IMG/VR virus record: IMGVR_UViG_2541047751_000012
Source: a virus
Lineage: Duplodnaviria; Heunggongvirae; Uroviricota; Caudoviricetes
DNA length: 5,451 nucleotides
Direction: 5' to 3' (one strand)
Shown: one piece after another, positions 1 through 5,451 of the stretch
Layout: the number at the start of each line of letters is the position of its first letter
Numbering within the stretch: the first letter of the stretch is position 1
Made by a program: the position numbers and the translations under genes
Notes under the pieces: generated by a model
What the model saw: the letters and a program-made list of their open reading frames with translations, nothing else
The model's database searches: none
Told to the model about the DNA's origin: nothing

Positions 1-1143
1 CTATGCTGTTTTGATATCTACGATAATCCAGTCTTTACCACGATCATCATTGTATCGGTCGGTCATTTTTCTGGATTTATGACCTAACAACTTTTGCGTA
101 TCCAGACCCTGTTCCCGATATAACCGTTCTGACAGAGATCGCTGCTCATGAAATGTGGGCGCAGTTCCTGGCTCCCATTTTATGCCACATTTTTCCCTGG
201 CCTTTTTAAAAGCCGTTGTAAGAGTATTTGCAGACACCTGGTCTCCTCTGTTTGCTTGAGAGGTAGTGTGACGGTAATGGACCAGATATTTACTAACAAC
301 AGCATCCCTGCACTGAGATATAACTTCACGAAGGGTAATATTCAGAGCATCGCATTTCAGGTTAAGCGGAATAGCAAGTTTTGAACCGGTTTTTTCCTGA
401 GTAATGTGCAACATGTCGTCCCAGATATCAGAGAATTTCAAATTGCAGATATCGCCTAAACGTTGTCCAGTGACAAGAGCAAGTAGCATCCCGCATTTTA
501 AATAGGGCTGCCGTCTGCTTACGCTGTCAAATATTGCCTGCCATTCGGGCAGTGATAATCTTTGGCGGTTTACTCGATTTCGCGGTTGTTTTGTTGCCTG
601 CGCTGGGTTAAATCCTGGCGGAACATGTCCTGCGTGTTGTGCTTCTTTGAAGACGTCGATCAACACCATTCTCACGACTTGCGCCATCCTGTTATGACCT
701 TCAGCCTTTACAGCATCAATTATTTCGGCAATATCAAGTGCGGTAATATCCTTGAGGTGTTGCATTCCACAATGCTCACGGAAAAGACGAATGGGTTTGC
801 CTTTTTGCCGATAGGAGTTGGGTCTTAGTTCATTATGTTGCAGCCTGTCCTCCTGGATAGAAATATATTTATCAAGCCATTCTGTCACCGTAATGTCTGA
901 GCGCCTGCCTTTCATTCTTTCTAGACGCTCATTGACGCTTAATATTTGTCGGGTACGTTGTTCAGCAATAATGGTATTTGCTTCAGTAGCAACTTGTTTT
1001 GCTTCATTCTCATCAGTTCCTAAGCTATGAAAACGACCGGATAGTGGATGTTTGTATTGCCAATATACCTTTCCGGTTCGCTTATCTAATTTGCAATATA
1101 AATTGGGTATAGAGATTTTGTGAGATCGGGGTCTAGCAGCCAT
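1..1143 (-). CDS. int: Lambda-family tyrosine integrase (site-specific recombinase), 380 aa, apparently full length
   Basis: Complete ORF with its stop at the window edge (1-3). The translation tracks lambda Int as I recall it: N-terminal arm-binding region (MAARPRSHK...PNLY vs lambda MGRRRSHERRDLPPNLY) and a C-terminal catalytic region with VTGQRLGD, PTFHEQRSLSERLY and LLGHKS...DRYNDDRGKDW. The start overlaps the 3' end of the upstream excisionase gene by 11 nt. Confidence 0.93.
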   Translation of the reverse strand: MAARPRSHKISIPNLYCKLDKRTGKVYWQYKHPLSGRFHSLGTDENEAKQVATEANTIIAEQRTRQILSVNERLERMKGRRSDITVTEWLDKYISIQEDRLQHNELRPNSYRQKGKPIRLFREHCGMQHLKDITALDIAEIIDAVKAEGHNRMAQVVRMVLIDVFKEAQHAGHVPPGFNPAQATKQPRNRVNRQRLSLPEWQAIFDSVSRRQPYLKCGMLLALVTGQRLGDICNLKFSDIWDDMLHITQEKTGSKLAIPLNLKCDALNITLREVISQCRDAVVSKYLVHYRHTTSQANRGDQVSANTLTTAFKKAREKCGIKWEPGTAPTFHEQRSLSERLYREQGLDTQKLLGHKSRKMTDRYNDDRGKDWIIVDIKTA

Positions 1144-1369
1144 CAGCGATTATCCGTTGGAGTTTTGGGTTTGCGTTTATTGGGAGTTGCGGTTCTGCAA
1201 GCGTTCCTACAAAACGGGAATTTCGGTCAATCATCCAGTAGCGACCAACTTTTATAGCGGGTGGGGCCATCATTTTCCCTTGCGCGTATTTTTTCAGAAC
1301 TCGCTCACTTGGTGCTAAGTCCCCAAATTCTTCTTTAGCCCAGTCCTGTAAAGTGATTAGTCGAGACAT
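1133..1369 (-). CDS. xis: Excisionase (Xis-like recombination directionality factor), 78 aa
   Basis: Small ORF immediately upstream of int, overlapping it by 11 nt as in lambda xis-int. Strong Shine-Dalgarno (AAGAGGAGGA) 4-5 nt before the ATG. The N-terminus (MSRLITLQDW) resembles the lambda Xis start (..LTLQEW..). Family assignment is from position and partial recall. Confidence 0.8.
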   Translation of the reverse strand: MSRLITLQDWAKEEFGDLAPSERVLKKYAQGKMMAPPAIKVGRYWMIDRNSRFVGTLAEPQLPINANPKLQRIIADGC

Positions 1370-1508
1370 TTGTCCTCCTCTTAGCTGCTGAGGGAGTTTG
1401 TGACCGATATATCTGACATGATATTAAGCTCATGGCAGGTACATCTCTTGACTGGTCATAGAGATAAATTTAATGCTGAGAAATGCAGTATTGAATTTAT
1501 CAATTTTT

Positions 1509-1748
1509 CTATTTCCTGCGTATGGCACGTAACTTCTTAATGTGTTCTGCTGTTTCGATCTCTTCAGCTATCCGATCTGCGTCAGCTTTATTCACAGGTT
1601 CAAAGTCATGATTAAAGCGGAACATGCTGGCGATACATGTTCTGCCTTTTCGGATGTAGTGAACTTTGTTGTGAGTGGAACGCAGGATTTTGCAGGGAGT
1701 GCCGTGGTGGTCGACGTACCAGGTGTTAGGGTAAATCACTCTGAACAT
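1509..1748 (-). CDS. Small prophage accessory protein, 79 aa, function unknown (possibly a DUF4222-type protein; uncertain)
   Basis: ORF with a plausible AAGG Shine-Dalgarno 6 nt before the ATG, same strand as the operon, basic C-terminal tail. Sits upstream of xis, where lambdoid phages carry small accessory genes. The family name is an unverified recollection. Confidence 0.6.
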   Translation of the reverse strand: MFRVIYPNTWYVDHHGTPCKILRSTHNKVHYIRKGRTCIASMFRFNHDFEPVNKADADRIAEEIETAEHIKKLRAIRRK

Positions 1749-1773
1749 TCTTGACCTTGTGTTGTGCGGATTG

Positions 1774-2058
1774 TTATTCAGTGCCGATATTTACCTTTAT
1801 CGCGTATACCTTTACCGGTTTATCACCGAAGTGCGGATGTGTGATTGTCTTCACTTCATATCCGTCATACGGAACATCAACTCTGCGGCTGGAATCGTCG
1901 CGCTTCGGATATCCCTTTGTGATAATCAGGCGGTCATGCTTACGGTTAACGAGGCGCTTTTTCCAGTAGTCATTACACAGGCGATACTCTTCCGTTTTCT
2001 CTCCGCGAATCATGGCATCGAAGTATTCACCTTTAACGGCAAGTTGCAGGTTAGCCAC
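1774..2058 (-). CDS. Small protein with an ASCH/PUA-like (DUF3850-like) N-terminal signature, 94 aa if started at the GTG
   Basis: The six-frame ORF extends to 2142 but would overlap the upstream gene by about 90 nt. An in-frame GTG at 2058-2056 is preceded by a perfect AAGGAG with 6-nt spacing and overlaps the upstream stop by 8 nt. The segment EYFDAMIRGEKTEEYRLCNDYW fits the ASCH-like pattern (xYFxAvxxGxKxxExR) as I remember it. Confidence 0.55.
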   Translation of the reverse strand: MANLQLAVKGEYFDAMIRGEKTEEYRLCNDYWKKRLVNRKHDRLIITKGYPKRDDSSRRVDVPYDGYEVKTITHPHFGDKPVKVYAIKVNIGTE

Positions 2059-2791
2059 GGTTAACTCCTTGCTGTGTGGCGTCGAGTAATAAATCCCACA
2101 ACCGCTGAGAGCAATTTCCGCATGTACAGCGTTGACCCACAACGTTTATCGCGTTGCTGATTTCCGGCGTTACCTGTTTAGGAACCATAACCCAACCATC
2201 CGGAGTTACCGGAAGCGAGAACGGCAGCACATCTCTGTGAACAAGTTTTTGCTGTGACAGGTTATCCAGAACTTTCTGTACTGCTGCATCACCGAATACA
2301 CCAAGCGCATCTGCCATAACTCCTACAACCTGATAAGCCTCAGCGCATACCGTGGATAAACCATCCGGAATTACCGGAGAGTTGCCGGGTTCTTTAATGT
2401 GCAAGCGAGGCTCACCATCTTTTGGCTCAGGCCACTGGCGCTCCATGTTGATCTTCAATTTATCTTCCATAGCAACGGTAATTTCAGCATCGCTGATGCC
2501 AGCACGGCGCTGTGCATCCCACAACAGAAACTGCATATCAGCCCACTCGCTAAGATCGTCTGGTTCGGCTGCGGCTTCCAGTGCCTCTTTTGAGAGGTGT
2601 TTCAGTGGACCAATGGGGCCAACGCAGCCAAATGTGGAGTCAGACCATTTGGCATGCTCGTGGCGAATCTGTTCGCGTTCCAGTGATGCCAGTGCAATTC
2701 GTGCTAGTTCCATTTGTTCGCCACGAGTAAGCCCGTTTTCAAGCGGATTTTTAATGAACAATTCAATACGTTCTTTGGTAATAGTGGTCAT
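2051..2791 (-). CDS. Modular prophage protein of unknown function, 246 aa; paralog of the 2999-3778 gene
   Basis: Long ORF with a GAGGA Shine-Dalgarno. Its ATG overlaps the stop of the upstream small gene (ATGA). It shares an N-terminal region (..ELARIALASLEREQ vs ..AYEIALASLEENP) and an NSPVIP motif with the 2999-3778 product. It also contains an internal repeat, PVIPDGL / PVTPDGW. Confidence 0.75.
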   Translation of the reverse strand: MTTITKERIELFIKNPLENGLTRGEQMELARIALASLEREQIRHEHAKWSDSTFGCVGPIGPLKHLSKEALEAAAEPDDLSEWADMQFLLWDAQRRAGISDAEITVAMEDKLKINMERQWPEPKDGEPRLHIKEPGNSPVIPDGLSTVCAEAYQVVGVMADALGVFGDAAVQKVLDNLSQQKLVHRDVLPFSLPVTPDGWVMVPKQVTPEISNAINVVGQRCTCGNCSQRLWDLLLDATQQGVNRG

Positions 2792-2997
2792 GTGTTAATC
2801 CTCAAAACTTTATGCCCGGGCGCAAAAGTACGTGTTTTGTCTTTGCTTATTCGCCACCCGTCTTTACGGGCCTCTTTTGCACAACCAGACCATGACGTAC
2901 CGATATACTCACCGAAGTCTGGCACTGGATATACACCTTCCGTACACTGGCGACAATCACAATAGAGATGCATGGTGTAACTTGCGGCAATAGCCAT
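2788..2997 (-). CDS. Small Cys-rich protein, 69 aa, putative zinc ribbon; function unknown
   Basis: The six-frame ORF reaches 3039, but that would overlap the upstream gene. The ATG at 2997-2995 lies 1 nt after the upstream stop with AAGAGAG just upstream. The product (MAIAASYTMHLYCDCRQC...SGC...) has a CxCxxC cluster plus one more Cys. Its stop overlaps the next gene's ATG (ATGA). Confidence 0.55.
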   Translation of the reverse strand: MAIAASYTMHLYCDCRQCTEGVYPVPDFGEYIGTSWSGCAKEARKDGWRISKDKTRTFAPGHKVLRINT

Positions 2998-2998
2998 A

Positions 2999-3778
2999 TC
3001 ACTCTCTTTTTCCCTGAAGCATGGCAGCGTGGCAGGCATCCTCTACGCCCTTAACTGCATCTGCGCAGTAGTTATAGCGATTGCATTCCACTAACTTCTG
3101 CCTGAGATTTTCAATTGCTTGCGCGACATCAGCCTGTATTACAGGAACTGGCGGAACGGCTGTCTGCTGCTCTCGAACGTCATTAGTCGCTATCGGTTCT
3201 GCTGCCAACTGACTGGCATATTTGTTAATGGTAACGATAAGCTCTTGCTCAGCCTCATCCAGACAATCACCGATACCTCGCCTGTCGCCGTCAAAATCAT
3301 CGAAATCAGCACGAACTCTGGCAAATTTCAGGATTGCGGACAACACCTCACCAGGAATTACCGGAGAGTTGGTTGACGTTTCCGAAATTTCCCGAAAATT
3401 ATTGGTTGACGAATTCGCGTTTTCCCGAAAGTTTCCGGCATGAAGCATAGCCGCGCGGCAGGCGTTCCAGCCTTCATCAAAACCGACTATGCCATTATTT
3501 AAAGTCGGACGAGCATCTGGCACCACCGGCACTGGCTTGGCTATATATAGCGGCTGAACATACCAACCCTTTGATAACCAACTGTCAGCAATGTTTTTAC
3601 TCCTCGTTATTGCCGGAATACCTAAGCCATTGTCTGAATGCAGCCATGCCACCGGATTCTCTTCCAGCGATGCCAGAGCAATTTCATAAGCCCGGCGCTC
3701 AACATTGTCTCGCACATCCAAACTGCTGATACGCTCTTTGATTTCTTTAATCAGTTCTTTGTCGGTAAAAGTGCTCAT
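2999..3778 (-). CDS. Modular prophage protein of unknown function, 259 aa; paralog of the 2051-2791 gene; contains an 11-aa tandem repeat
   Basis: The six-frame ORF starts at 3799, but the ATG at 3778-3776 (MSTFTDKELIK...) has a GGAGA Shine-Dalgarno at about 6 nt and sits 1 nt after the Ea22-like stop. It shares the N-terminal helix and the NSPVIP motif with the 2051-2791 product, with an 18-nt identical DNA core. It carries the internal repeat NFRENANSSTN / NFREISETSTN. Confidence 0.75.
   Translation of the reverse strand: MSTFTDKELIKEIKERISSLDVRDNVERRAYEIALASLEENPVAWLHSDNGLGIPAITRSKNIADSWLSKGWYVQPLYIAKPVPVVPDARPTLNNGIVGFDEGWNACRAAMLHAGNFRENANSSTNNFREISETSTNSPVIPGEVLSAILKFARVRADFDDFDGDRRGIGDCLDEAEQELIVTINKYASQLAAEPIATNDVREQQTAVPPVPVIQADVAQAIENLRQKLVECNRYNYCADAVKGVEDACHAAMLQGKRE
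3369..3434 (-). repeat. Two-copy imperfect 33-bp tandem repeat inside the 2999-3778 CDS
   Basis: ttggttgacgtttccgaaatttcccgaaaatta versus ttggttgacgaattcgcgttttcccgaaagttt, about 24/33 identical and in frame (11 codons each), encoding NFRENANSSTN / NFREISETSTN on the minus strand. Confidence 0.7.
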
Positions 3779-3779
3779 A

Positions 3780-4544
3780 TCAATCTCCATTGGTATCAAT
3801 GTTTACAGCCTGACAAGACTCTTTGAGCACCCAGTCAATAGCGTCTTTCCATGCCTCTGTTTCGACTGGTGGATTTTCACGCTTAACCTGTTCATAGAAG
3901 CGCACTGCTTTAACCAGTCCTTCCGGTACTACTGGTGATGGCTGTTTAGCTTCTAAATCAGCAATTCTGTCAACCACGGCATCGACAGCATCTGAAAAGC
4001 CGAACCAGTTGCTCCACTCCGGCTCATCCCCGGTTGCTGCAAAGTACATATCTGCTAAAGCAGATTCAGCATGGTCACGCTCGTTAATGAGTTGCTCTTC
4101 GCTTTTCTCCAGTTCAGCAATACGCTTACCCCCATCCGAGATAACACCTTCGTAATACTCACGCTGCTCGTTGAGTTTTGATTTTGTCTCCTCAAGCTCA
4201 ACTCTCAGCTTCCCAACAGTAAGAGCAATATCCTCGTTCTCCTGGTCGCGGCGTTTTATGTATTGCTGGTTTCTTTCCCGTTCATCCAGCAGTGCCAGCA
4301 CAGTAGCCGGATTGGCTGCGGCGATGAATTCAGCATTGGCCTGCTGTTCCATTTGGAAATCTTCATCGAAACCGCTTTCTGGATGCGCTCCTTCAATTCT
4401 GCAAATGGGAATATATCCAGCAACTTCACGATGAATTAGCGCATAATCACCATCAAATCGGCTCTCTCCATATTCGAGCGACCACTCACCACACGTTGCT
4501 TTTTCTGCCGCTTCACGCAGTGCCTGATAGTTAATTTCGCTCAC
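3780..4544 (-). CDS. Ead/Ea22-like coiled-coil protein, 254 aa
   Basis: Long ORF whose N-terminus (MSEINYQALREAAEKATCGEWS) matches my recollection of Ea22-like prophage proteins, with a central charged, coiled-coil-like region (ELEETKSKLNEQREYYE...ELEKSEEQL). The start codon is GTG (4544-4542), overlapping the upstream TraR-like stop (GTGA), with GAGAGG upstream. Confidence 0.8.
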   Translation of the reverse strand: MSEINYQALREAAEKATCGEWSLEYGESRFDGDYALIHREVAGYIPICRIEGAHPESGFDEDFQMEQQANAEFIAAANPATVLALLDERERNQQYIKRRDQENEDIALTVGKLRVELEETKSKLNEQREYYEGVISDGGKRIAELEKSEEQLINERDHAESALADMYFAATGDEPEWSNWFGFSDAVDAVVDRIADLEAKQPSPVVPEGLVKAVRFYEQVKRENPPVETEAWKDAIDWVLKESCQAVNIDTNGD

Positions 4545-4762
4545 TTCGAACCTCTCTGTTTACTGATAAGCTCCAGATCCTCCTGGCAACTTGCACAAGT
4601 CCGACAACCCTGAACGACCAGGCGTCTTCGTTCATCTATGGGATCGCCACACTCACAACAATGAGTGGCGGATATAGTCTGGTAGTTCAGACGACGCATT
4701 TTTATTGCTGTATTGCGCTGTAATTCTTCAATTTCTGATGCTGAATCAATGATGTCCGCCAT
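4541..4762 (-). CDS. TraR/DksA-family C4 zinc-finger protein (lambda orf73-like), 73 aa
   Basis: The translation has the TraR-type motif C-x2-C-x14-C-x2-C (..CCECGDPIDERRRLVVQGCRTCASCQ..), which aligns by eye with F-plasmid TraR (..CEACGNPIPEARR...CVECQ..). The size and the position in the early-left region are consistent with lambda orf73. Confidence 0.85.
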   Translation of the reverse strand: MADIIDSASEIEELQRNTAIKMRRLNYQTISATHCCECGDPIDERRRLVVQGCRTCASCQEDLELISKQRGSK

Positions 4763-4810
4763 CTTTCATTAATCCCTGAATTGTTGGTTAATACGCTTGA
4801 GGGTGAATGC

Positions 4811-4845
4811 GAATAATAAAAAAGGAGCCTGTAGCTCCCTGATGA
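4811..4845 (-). terminator. Putative Rho-independent terminator on the minus strand
   Basis: On the minus strand: AGGGAGC-tacag-GCUCC(uu) hairpin (5 G/C-rich pairs plus possible G-U and A-U) followed directly by UUUUUUAUUAUU. On the plus strand the hairpin is preceded by an A-run instead, so it is orientation-specific to the operon direction. Located 16-50 nt after the stop of the 4861 gene. Confidence 0.5.
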
Positions 4846-4860
4846 TTTTGCTTTTCATGT

Positions 4861-5076
4861 TCACCGTTCCTTAAAGACGCCGTTTAACATGCCGATCGCC
4901 AGGCTTAAATGAGTCGGTGTGAATCCCATCAGCGTTACCGTTTCGCGGTGCTTCTTTAGTACGCTACGGCAAATGTCATCGACGTTTTTATCCGGAAACT
5001 GCTGTCTGGCTTTTTTGATTTCAGAATTAGCCTGACGGGCAATGCTGCGAAGGGCGTTTTCTTGCTGAGGTGTCAC
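4861..5076 (-). CDS. Hypothetical small phage protein; 71 aa if started at GTG 5076, or 93 aa if started at ATG 5142
   Basis: The ORF is clear from 4861; the start is ambiguous. The ATG at 5142 has no Shine-Dalgarno and gives a Cys-rich, odd-looking N-terminus (MHFSGSGLHILCAYACRHGACS). The GTG at 5076-5074 overlaps the stop of a 27-aa ORF (GTGA), matching the coupling pattern of the rest of the operon. The C-terminal 70 aa look like a normal soluble protein; I do not recognise the family. Confidence 0.5.
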   Translation of the reverse strand: MTPQQENALRSIARQANSEIKKARQQFPDKNVDDICRSVLKKHRETVTLMGFTPTHLSLAIGMLNGVFKER

Positions 5077-5156
5077 TGAACAAGCCCCATGTCGGCAAGC
5101 ATAAGCACACAGAATATGAAGCCCGCTGCCAGAAAAATGCATTCAGTGGTTGTCAT
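5073..5156 (-). CDS. Candidate 27-aa hydrophobic small protein (MTTTECIFLAAGFIFCVLMLADMGLVQ)
   Basis: Short ORF missing from the six-frame track. Its ATG (5156-5154) overlaps the TGA of the truncated upstream reading frame (ATGA) and its TGA overlaps the GTG of the next gene (GTGA). The product is dominated by one hydrophobic stretch of transmembrane length. No strong Shine-Dalgarno (GAGAGA at about 6-7 nt). Confidence 0.25.
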   Translation of the reverse strand: MTTTECIFLAAGFIFCVLMLADMGLVQ

Positions 5157-5241
5157 ACCTGGTCTCTCTCATCTGCTTCTGCTTTCGCCACCATCATTTC
5201 CAGCTTTTGTGAAAGGGATGTGGCTAACGTATGAAATTCTT
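5153..5241 (-). pseudogene. 3' remnant (about 28 codons) of a minus-strand phage gene, apparently truncated by the IS insertion
   Basis: An open frame (..EFHTLATSLSQKLEMMVAKAEADERDQV*) runs from the IS boundary to a TGA at 5155-5153, with no start codon context at its 5' end. That end abuts the IS left terminus at about 5242. The identity of the disrupted gene is unknown. Confidence 0.3.
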
Positions 5242-5451
5242 TGAACCGCCCCGGGAATCCTGGAGACTAAACTTCCTGAGAAAGAGGTAAACAGGATGAC
5301 TAAAAATACTCGTTTTTCCCCCGAAGTCCGTCAACGGGCAGTCCGTATGGTTCTGGAAAGTCAGAGCGAATATGACTCACAATGGGCGACAATTTGTTCC
5401 ATTGCTCCAAAGATTGGCTGTACGCCGGAGACTCTGCGTGTCTGGGTTCGC
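5242..5451 (+). mobile_element. IS3-family insertion sequence, left end (IS629/IS1203-like from memory); continues beyond the window
   Basis: A terminal sequence TGAACCGCCCCGGGAATCCTGGAGACTAAACTTCC begins at 5242, followed 54 nt later by an orfA-type gene. This matches my recollection of the IS629 left inverted repeat and leader. The change in gene orientation and content at this point is abrupt. Confidence 0.8.
5296..5451 (+). CDS. IS3-family transposase OrfA (helix-turn-helix), N-terminal 52 codons; partial at window end
   Basis: ATG at 5296 preceded by GAAAGAGG at about 8 nt. The translation [52 protein letters not shown] matches the IS629-type OrfA N-terminus as I recall it. Open to the end of the window. 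Confidence 0.85.

Follow-up and report, generated by a model that had tools for sequence, protein, structure and literature searches.

What do two small genes beside the excisionase gene of a phage-21-like prophage contribute, and do they act together? The question is raised by IMG/VR virus record IMGVR_UViG_2541047751_000012 (Duplodnaviria; Heunggongvirae; Uroviricota; Caudoviricetes), a stretch of 5,451 nucleotides (nt) that is referred to below as the window. A preliminary description had placed two small open reading frames (ORFs) next to xis; both are present on the minus strand, and RefSeq holds the same coding sequences (CDS). The larger ORF encodes an ASCH-like protein of 94 amino acids (aa) and the smaller a 79-aa DUF4222 protein, and both identities are held with high confidence. 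Taken as a whole, the locus is best explained, at somewhat better than even chances, by two independent accessory genes, one for an ASCH-type nucleobase binder or hydrolase and the other for a DUF4222 modulator resembling the regulator RgdR. Each of the two mechanistic readings contained in this explanation draws on analogy with characterised relatives and is tentative, being on balance doubtful. The features that carry the argument are as follows.

1774 to 2058, minus strand: 94-aa standalone ASCH-like (PUA-like) gene, from GTG at 2056-2058 to the stop codon at 1774-1776.
1981 to 2004, minus strand: codons of GEKTEEYR (residues 19-26), an exact fit to GxKxxExR, at the alpha1-beta2 junction.
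1825 to 1842, minus strand: codons of THPHFG (residues 73-78), a family-specific motif with two histidines, recognised from conservation in alignments.
2065 to 2070, minus strand: Shine-Dalgarno sequence AAGGAG, separated from the GTG by the 6-nt spacer TTAACC and lying within the 3' end of the upstream 246-aa gene.
1509 to 1748, minus strand: 79-aa DUF4222 gene (Pfam PF13973, PHROG 285, RefSeq WP_000490215.1).

The 94-aa protein is basic and single-domain, and its predicted fold is clearly an ASCH/PUA-like beta-barrel. The AlphaFold2 model, with a predicted local distance difference test score (pLDDT) of 83.4 and a predicted template modelling score of 0.69, has the topology beta1(2-8), alpha1(10-18), beta2(23-27), alpha2(30-37), beta3(41-48), beta4(59-63), beta5(67-72) and beta6(82-88), so that alpha1 lies between beta1 and beta2. 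Solved ASCH domains are its nearest structural relatives, as ranks 1-18 of the Foldseek search are all occupied by them (3IUW, 2Z0T, ZmASCH, 1XNE, YqfB, 1S04 and 1WK2), with expect values (E) of 0.01-0.8 and template modelling scores (TM-scores) of at most 0.61. The N-terminal ASCH-like pattern and the fold that the preliminary description had ascribed to this product are both borne out.

The motif adds detail to this picture. In solved ASCH domains, the signature GxKxxExR forms a cavity at the alpha1-beta2 junction (PMC6803910). In the family of the 94-aa protein, K21 never varies among 60 diverse members, and conservation of G19, E24 and R26 reaches at least 90%. Two types of this motif have been studied in related proteins. 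In YqfB, residues K21, T24, R26 and E74 are catalytic for the hydrolysis of N4-acetylcytidine (ac4C; PMC9599836), and in the TRIP4/EOLA1 clade, according to a 2026 preprint, a Glu at position 24 is absolutely conserved and human EOLA1 deacetylates free ac4C by means of K21/E24/R26. As the conserved E24 stands two residues before the motif Arg, the motif reads as the Glu-type GxKxxExR of the TRIP4/EOLA1 clade rather than the Thr-type of YqfB; of the catalytic set of YqfB, K21 and R26 are present, position 24 is Glu, and residue 74 is a His that corresponds by numbering only. Furthermore, the family has conserved motifs of its own, namely G49-Y50-P51 and THPHFG. In the latter, conservation of H74 and F77 is 90% or more among the 60 diverse members (alignment A3), and in alignment A1 residues T73, H74, F77 and G78 are invariant and H76 is at least 90% conserved.

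Longer members of the ASCH-like family were also inspected. Ten of them were scanned for domain fusions and gave only sub-threshold matches to SH3_18 and RVT_1, and the members with these matches are probably read-through or chimeric ORFs. In a high-GC (guanine plus cytosine) viral contig (L097, 4001-5146), a distant ASCH-like domain forms an in-frame fusion with a PAPS-reductase/PP-loop domain, which scores 23 bits against PF01507 and barely passes the cut-off; a gene for a 292-aa protein without a Pfam match precedes the fusion. This fusion is a single case and may be a sequencing or read-through artefact.

The product of the 79-aa ORF, which begins with an ATG at 1746-1748 behind a weak Shine-Dalgarno sequence (AAGG, 1755-1758), can be assigned clearly to DUF4222 on the strength of profile matches. 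Its residues 4-53 cover positions 2-53 of the 53 in Pfam PF13973 with a score of 67.7 bits (E 6.4e-19), where the cut-off is 27, PHROG 285 is matched with E 3e-36, and the same 79-aa CDS is annotated in RefSeq for strain CFT073 as a 'DUF4222 domain-containing protein' (WP_000490215.1). The protein had been described at first as basic and uncharacterised; basic it is, with an isoelectric point of 9.86, but the second term no longer fits a member of the family of RgdR. The predicted fold is an SH3-like small barrel with a long C-terminal helix. In the AlphaFold2 model (pLDDT 85.5), four strands (10-41) with a short helix and strand (to 51) make up the barrel and are followed by a 25-residue C-terminal helix at 54-78, and the Foldseek matches are small barrels of SH3-like type with modest E-values (0.03-0.4): a PWWP domain from a bacterium in complex with single-stranded DNA, TnsB, and KOW, Tudor and SH3 domains.

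Within DUF4222, the characterised protein is RgdR (ECs1581) of enterohaemorrhagic Escherichia coli (EHEC) O157, which activates LEE1 and the type III secretion system, represses motility and binds DNA non-specifically; its CFT073 orthologue c1493 is also active (PMC3378721, PMC10877973). BLASTP pairs c1493 (L003:4182-4481) with the 79-aa protein over 68 residues, of which 25% are identical (E 1e-5). An RGD tripeptide at residues 20-22 is important for the activity of RgdR, and in the BLASTP register, where c1493 residue 24 pairs with residue 11, the RGD of c1493 falls on P7-N8-T9 of the 79-aa protein. In CFT073, c1493 belongs to a P4-like element (locus L003, 1377764-1393349), and a distance of no more than about 16-18 kb separates it from the icd prophage with the DUF4222 gene studied here.

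Whether the two genes form a pair can be judged from their company elsewhere, for which 80 loci were selected for the ASCH gene and a separate 80 for this DUF4222 gene. The following features lie on the xis side of both genes.

1 to 1143, minus strand: tyrosine integrase of phage-21 type (icd-specific), an ORF that adjoins icd in CFT073 and is annotated in phage 21.
1133 to 1369, minus strand: excisionase (xis) of phage-21 type, from Pfam Exc, PHROG 629 and the phage 21 annotation.
1370 to 1508, minus strand: 139-nt spacer from the DUF4222 gene to xis, with two predicted hairpins.

The co-occurrence counts in both sets of loci argue for separate modules. A DUF4222 gene follows the ASCH gene in only 15 of the 80 ASCH-selected loci; in the others it is followed by integrases of other types (34-39% identical) or by different genes, and the gene upstream of it varies (Ea22-like, orf266-like, DUF550, TraR). 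Conversely, phage-21 xis stands at a fixed +379 in 72 of the 80 DUF4222-selected loci and the ASCH gene is present in only 12; in most of the DUF4222-selected loci TraR directly precedes DUF4222. Clustering of the neighbours of 155 ASCH loci gave as the only recurrent partners the Ea22-like/orf266 mosaic upstream and an integrase or excisionase downstream. Similarly, distant ASCH relatives in high-GC temperate phages (loci L084, L089, L094, L103 and L145), which are 55-72% identical to the reference of the search alignment, lie just upstream of excisionase-like helix-turn-helix genes or integrases. As such, DUF4222 belongs to the int-xis module, and the ASCH gene is a separate mosaic cassette. 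A fixed two-enzyme nucleotide pathway with the DUF550 pyrophosphohydrolase was also considered and dropped, as the upstream position is occupied by a DUF550 gene in no more than about 15 of the 80 loci.

From these identities a mechanism can be proposed for each gene separately. The Lys/Glu/Arg pocket of the ASCH protein (K21/E24/R26) would accommodate a nucleobase that is free or flipped out; a modified cytosine derivative is the most plausible candidate. The protein may also hydrolyse the bound base, in the manner of YqfB and EOLA1 acting on N4-acetylcytidine. Soon after infection or induction, it would serve as a dispensable factor in nucleotide or nucleic-acid housekeeping or in the interaction with the host. 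The DUF4222 protein, like its distant relative RgdR, would be a small DNA binder of low specificity that modulates transcription; alternatively, it may modulate the architecture of the DNA around xis-int, the module that it is inherited with.

Several observations weigh against this explanation. The Pfam ASCH model (PF04266) matches the 94-aa protein over residues 6-48 only and, at 15.5 bits, falls short of its cut-off of 21.2, and weak sub-threshold ASCH matches occur in only 20 of the 60 diverse family members, with DUF3850 matches in 6. The profile built from these 60 sequences matched nothing among PDB chains, and its hhalign comparison with YqfB places residues 11-27 on residues 11-27, in the right register and with an E of 0.13 that is not significant alone. 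The 'ASCH' label is one of fold and motif rather than of a Pfam-level match; single-sequence searches of PDB chains with the 94-aa and the 79-aa protein also gave no meaningful match, and NCBIfam holds no model for either. Murine EOLA1 is inactive on ac4C according to a report cited in the 2026 preprint, so the Glu-type triad is not generally proven to be catalytic, and the biology of ac4C in E. coli offers no obvious reason for a phage-borne enzyme. For the DUF4222 protein, the identity with the RgdR orthologues of only 25%, the missing RGD motif and the location of RgdR and c1493, beside the primase gene of P4-like satellite elements and not beside xis, count in the same direction.

A different role for the ASCH protein would be that of an RNA binder or ribonuclease like ZmASCH, which would act on host or phage transcripts and not on free or flipped modified bases. 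This is unlikely. The nearest structural matches are minimal ASCH proteins (3IUW, 2Z0T, YqfB) and not ZmASCH, the 94-aa protein does not have the extra helices of ZmASCH with its 140-150 residues, and proteins of YqfB type showed neither RNA binding nor ribonuclease activity (PMC9599836).

The DUF4222 protein might be an accessory factor of phage-21 integration and excision, an architectural DNA-binding protein or directionality cofactor, rather than a host regulator like RgdR. Its fixed distance of +379 to the phage-21-type xis-int genes in 72 of 80 loci, with variable neighbours upstream, would suit this role, as would the small, basic barrel-plus-helix fold, which recurs in many DNA- and RNA-binding modules. 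The 139-nt spacer, of the same length in these 72 loci, is itself structured: its predicted RNA fold reaches -32 kcal/mol (z -2.65) with two hairpins on the transcribed minus strand, and a terminator-like, AT-rich hairpin of 16 bp is found on the plus strand at 1463-1501. However, the linkage may merely reflect physical proximity, other DUF4222 proteins (RgdR and c1493) are not neighbours of xis-int, and we know of no such cofactor for lambdoid Int/Xis systems. A role in recombination is given a low probability, and an RgdR-like modulator is preferred for the 79-aa protein.

The setting of both genes bears on the question of whether they are cargo. Escherichia phage ev017 and PhiR57_1 share 99.9% identity with the DNA of the window. 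Phage 21 matches about half of it (50% coverage, 97% identity), and its annotation gives int-xis-DUF4222 in the order of the window, with a different gene as the neighbour of DUF4222. The 801-bp stretch with both genes is 100% identical in CFT073, ABU 83972, ATCC 25922 and others, in which the prophage adjoins icd, and at least 80% of it is carried by 651 of 5426 complete E. coli genomes. Because of these matches and the icd-adjacent prophages, the locus is assigned to a phage-21-like lambdoid prophage with icd as its integration site, within the 'b/ea' part that lies distally in the early-left operon. From 1 to 5240 every long ORF is on the minus strand, in a single, tightly packed leftward array, the upstream part of which consists of the following genes.

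2051 to 2791, minus strand: 246-aa DUF550 gene with a dATP/dGTP pyrophosphohydrolase domain (Pfam PF04447, E 8e-42).
2788 to 3039, minus strand: 83-aa ORF with no assigned function, matched by PHROG 926 from residue 15 only.
2999 to 3799, minus strand: 266-aa ORF with no assigned function, from the ORF list.
3780 to 4544, minus strand: gene for an Ea22-like protein, from Pfam and PHROG scans.
4541 to 4762, minus strand: gene for a TraR/DksA zinc-finger protein, from Pfam and PHROG scans.
4861 to 5142, minus strand: 93-aa ORF, from the ORF list.

Some further observations concern these neighbours and the state of the prophage. The DUF550, 266-aa and Ea22-like proteins (2051-4544) have similar N-terminal segments ending in ...ALASLE and share matches to phrog_60 and phrog_660, with phrog_3323 in the first two, which points to a mosaic family of shuffled modules. 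The 83-aa ORF is Cys-rich, and its true start is probably the internal ATG at Met15 (about 2995-2997), since the PHROG 926 match begins there and the RefSeq product in CFT073 has 69 aa. An Rfam scan of the whole window matched no family. Phage homology ends at about 5241, and within the last part of the window (5242-5451) an orfA of an IS3-family transposase (HTH_Tnp_1, E 2.5e-6) begins at 5296. In matching genomes the insertion sequence (IS) lies in or beside the gene for a 'DUF1382 family protein', and the early region of the prophage is therefore taken to be interrupted at the end of the window. The CFT073 copy (NC_004431.1 1395082-1405882) is decaying, as IS3 splits xis, the IS21-like ISEc10 splits the Ea22-like gene and several neighbours are pseudogenes; the ASCH and DUF4222 genes are intact in it.

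It had been suggested at the outset that one or both genes could be lysogenic-conversion or anti-defence cargo. An anti-defence, superinfection-exclusion or lysogenic-conversion function could, for example, take the form of an ASCH protein that masks or removes a modified base or a nucleotide signal of host defence. PUA-like and ASCH-like domains do serve as modified-base sensors or enzymes in phage-host conflict, and one preprint reports such a domain as a glycosylase of 5-hydroxymethylcytosine. The ASCH gene is also mobile, a mosaic cassette that some prophages carry and others, alike in most other respects, lack, and the distant relative fused to a PAPS-reductase (PP-loop) domain could be read in the same sense. 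Nevertheless, the suggestion is unsupported by the architecture and the database searches. Between 1100 and 2900, no sigma-70-like promoter site was found where 2.7 would be expected by chance, in a simple consensus scan that may miss weak or non-canonical promoters, and the same interval holds no minus-strand terminator flanking either gene. A moron cassette, with a promoter and terminator of its own, is thus not seen; the 94-aa gene overlaps one neighbour by 8 nt and is separated from the other by 25 nt. The arrangement reads as that of delayed-early genes within the operon, and expression of such early lytic genes from a repressed prophage is not expected. The b-region genes of lambda are non-essential, and by analogy these delayed-early genes would be so too. 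Moreover, PADLOC-DB gave no match at E of 0.1 or below for the two proteins, nor for four of five neighbours that were scanned with them, and no fusion or neighbour consistently indicates a defence partner. A JetC match of 10 bits, obtained with the Ea22-like protein in the same database, was taken as chance. A cargo or anti-defence function is accordingly rated improbable for either gene.

A bolder form of the ASCH mechanism would make the whole family, with its K21/E24/R26 pocket, its GYP and THPHFG motifs, its 737 clusters and its frequent position just upstream of xis/int in unrelated temperate phages, a new class of enzymes that remove or read modified cytosine. The candidate targets in that case would be either a cytosine nucleotide with an N4-acyl group or a substituent at position 5, or a base within tRNA or DNA. 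We consider this very unlikely. Were it true, the class would represent a small counter-defence or nucleotide-sanitising enzyme that protects the phage or reprogrammes the host just after induction or infection.

The translation start of the ASCH-like gene decides which protein is discussed, and public records compete over it, with 94 aa from the GTG in one case and 113 aa from an apparently non-canonical ATT start farther upstream in another (P0001). The minus strand reads AAGGAG-TTAACC-GTG-GCT-AAC at this point, and the TAA of the 246-aa gene lies at 2051-2053. The 8-nt overlap is a classic arrangement for translational coupling, by which the 94-aa gene would be coupled to the upstream gene. 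RefSeq has the identical CDS in CFT073 ('ASCH domain-containing protein', WP_001304460.1). In 80 related viral loci the homologous start codon is GTG in 44 and ATG in 36, and GGAGG or AAGGAG stands 6-8 nt 5' of it in all 80. Farther upstream, the sequence belongs to at least five unrelated contexts, and 14 of the loci have an in-frame stop one codon 5' of the start. The PHROG 625 alignment begins at residue 1. The exchange of GTG for ATG, the constant Shine-Dalgarno sequence, the unrelated upstream sequence, the upstream stops and the PHROG 625 alignment make initiation at GTG 2056-2058 well supported at the sequence level, in keeping with what the preliminary description had proposed for this start and its ribosome-binding site inside the upstream gene. 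A start at the internal Met16 was rejected, as it would remove the conserved first strand.

Both ORFs also behave as genuine genes. Across Enterobacterales, at 90% identity, the homologues of the 94-aa protein fall into 642 clusters and those of the 79-aa protein into 111, and an exhaustive search of 50%-identity representatives gave the 737 clusters of the ASCH-like protein. Pairwise ratios of non-synonymous to synonymous substitution (dN/dS; Nei-Gojobori, each homologue against the window gene) have a median of 0.26 over 38 pairs for the 94-aa gene and of 0.13 over 21 pairs for the 79-aa gene, which indicates purifying selection on both and more than chance ORFs. Both genes occur commonly among prophages of E. 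coli, and RefSeq and phage records already label them likewise. There is next to no likelihood that the ORFs are spurious, with dN/dS so far below 1, or that the 94-aa product is really 113 or 122 aa long, since the N-terminally extended database entries (113-138 aa) have mutually unrelated extensions that all converge on (M/V)ANLQLAV and the in-frame TTG at 2140-2142 has no Shine-Dalgarno sequence before it.

The importance of these findings beyond annotation quality is small. They settle the competing database starts in favour of 94 aa, link the 79-aa gene to the RgdR regulator family and show each of the two genes to be a cassette of its own. Were the ASCH family truly an enzyme on modified cytosines, as analogy with YqfB and EOLA1 would allow, it would be a compact new tool and a new player in nucleotide conflicts between phage and host.

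To summarize, both proteins can be set against known systems. E. coli YqfB, the N4-acetylcytidine amidohydrolase (PDB 9KYF/9KYH, 1TE7), uses T24 as its nucleophile where the ASCH protein has E24. YqfB is also core chromosomal, whereas the ASCH protein is prophage-encoded with its extra conserved GYP and THPHFG motifs, and the similarity between them is not significant. Human EOLA1 (PDB 5Y7D) and the TRIP4-like clade are closer in the pocket, with the same Glu-type GxKxxExR and identical numbering of G19, K21, E24 and R26 at alpha1-beta2. The minimal ASCH proteins NP_814290 of Enterococcus faecalis (3IUW) and PH0355 of Pyrococcus horikoshii (2Z0T) are 15-19% identical and of no mechanistic help, and the ZmASCH ribonuclease of Zymomonas mobilis (5GUQ) is longer than the ASCH protein by about 50 residues. 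RgdR (ECs1581) and c1493 are, like the 79-aa protein, small, basic and prophage-encoded members of DUF4222 with an alignable core, but they have 99 aa rather than 79 and RGD in place of PNT, and they lie by the primase of a P4-like element instead of by the xis of a lambdoid phage; the host strains of the 79-aa gene are without the enterocyte effacement locus (LEE). Lambda itself has, to our knowledge, no ASCH gene in this position and no DUF4222 gene either. The genes of its b/ea region (ea8.5, ea22, orf61 and others) occupy the same place, from the early-left recombination genes to xis-int, and are likewise mosaic, and Ea22-like proteins are among the neighbours of the two genes described here.

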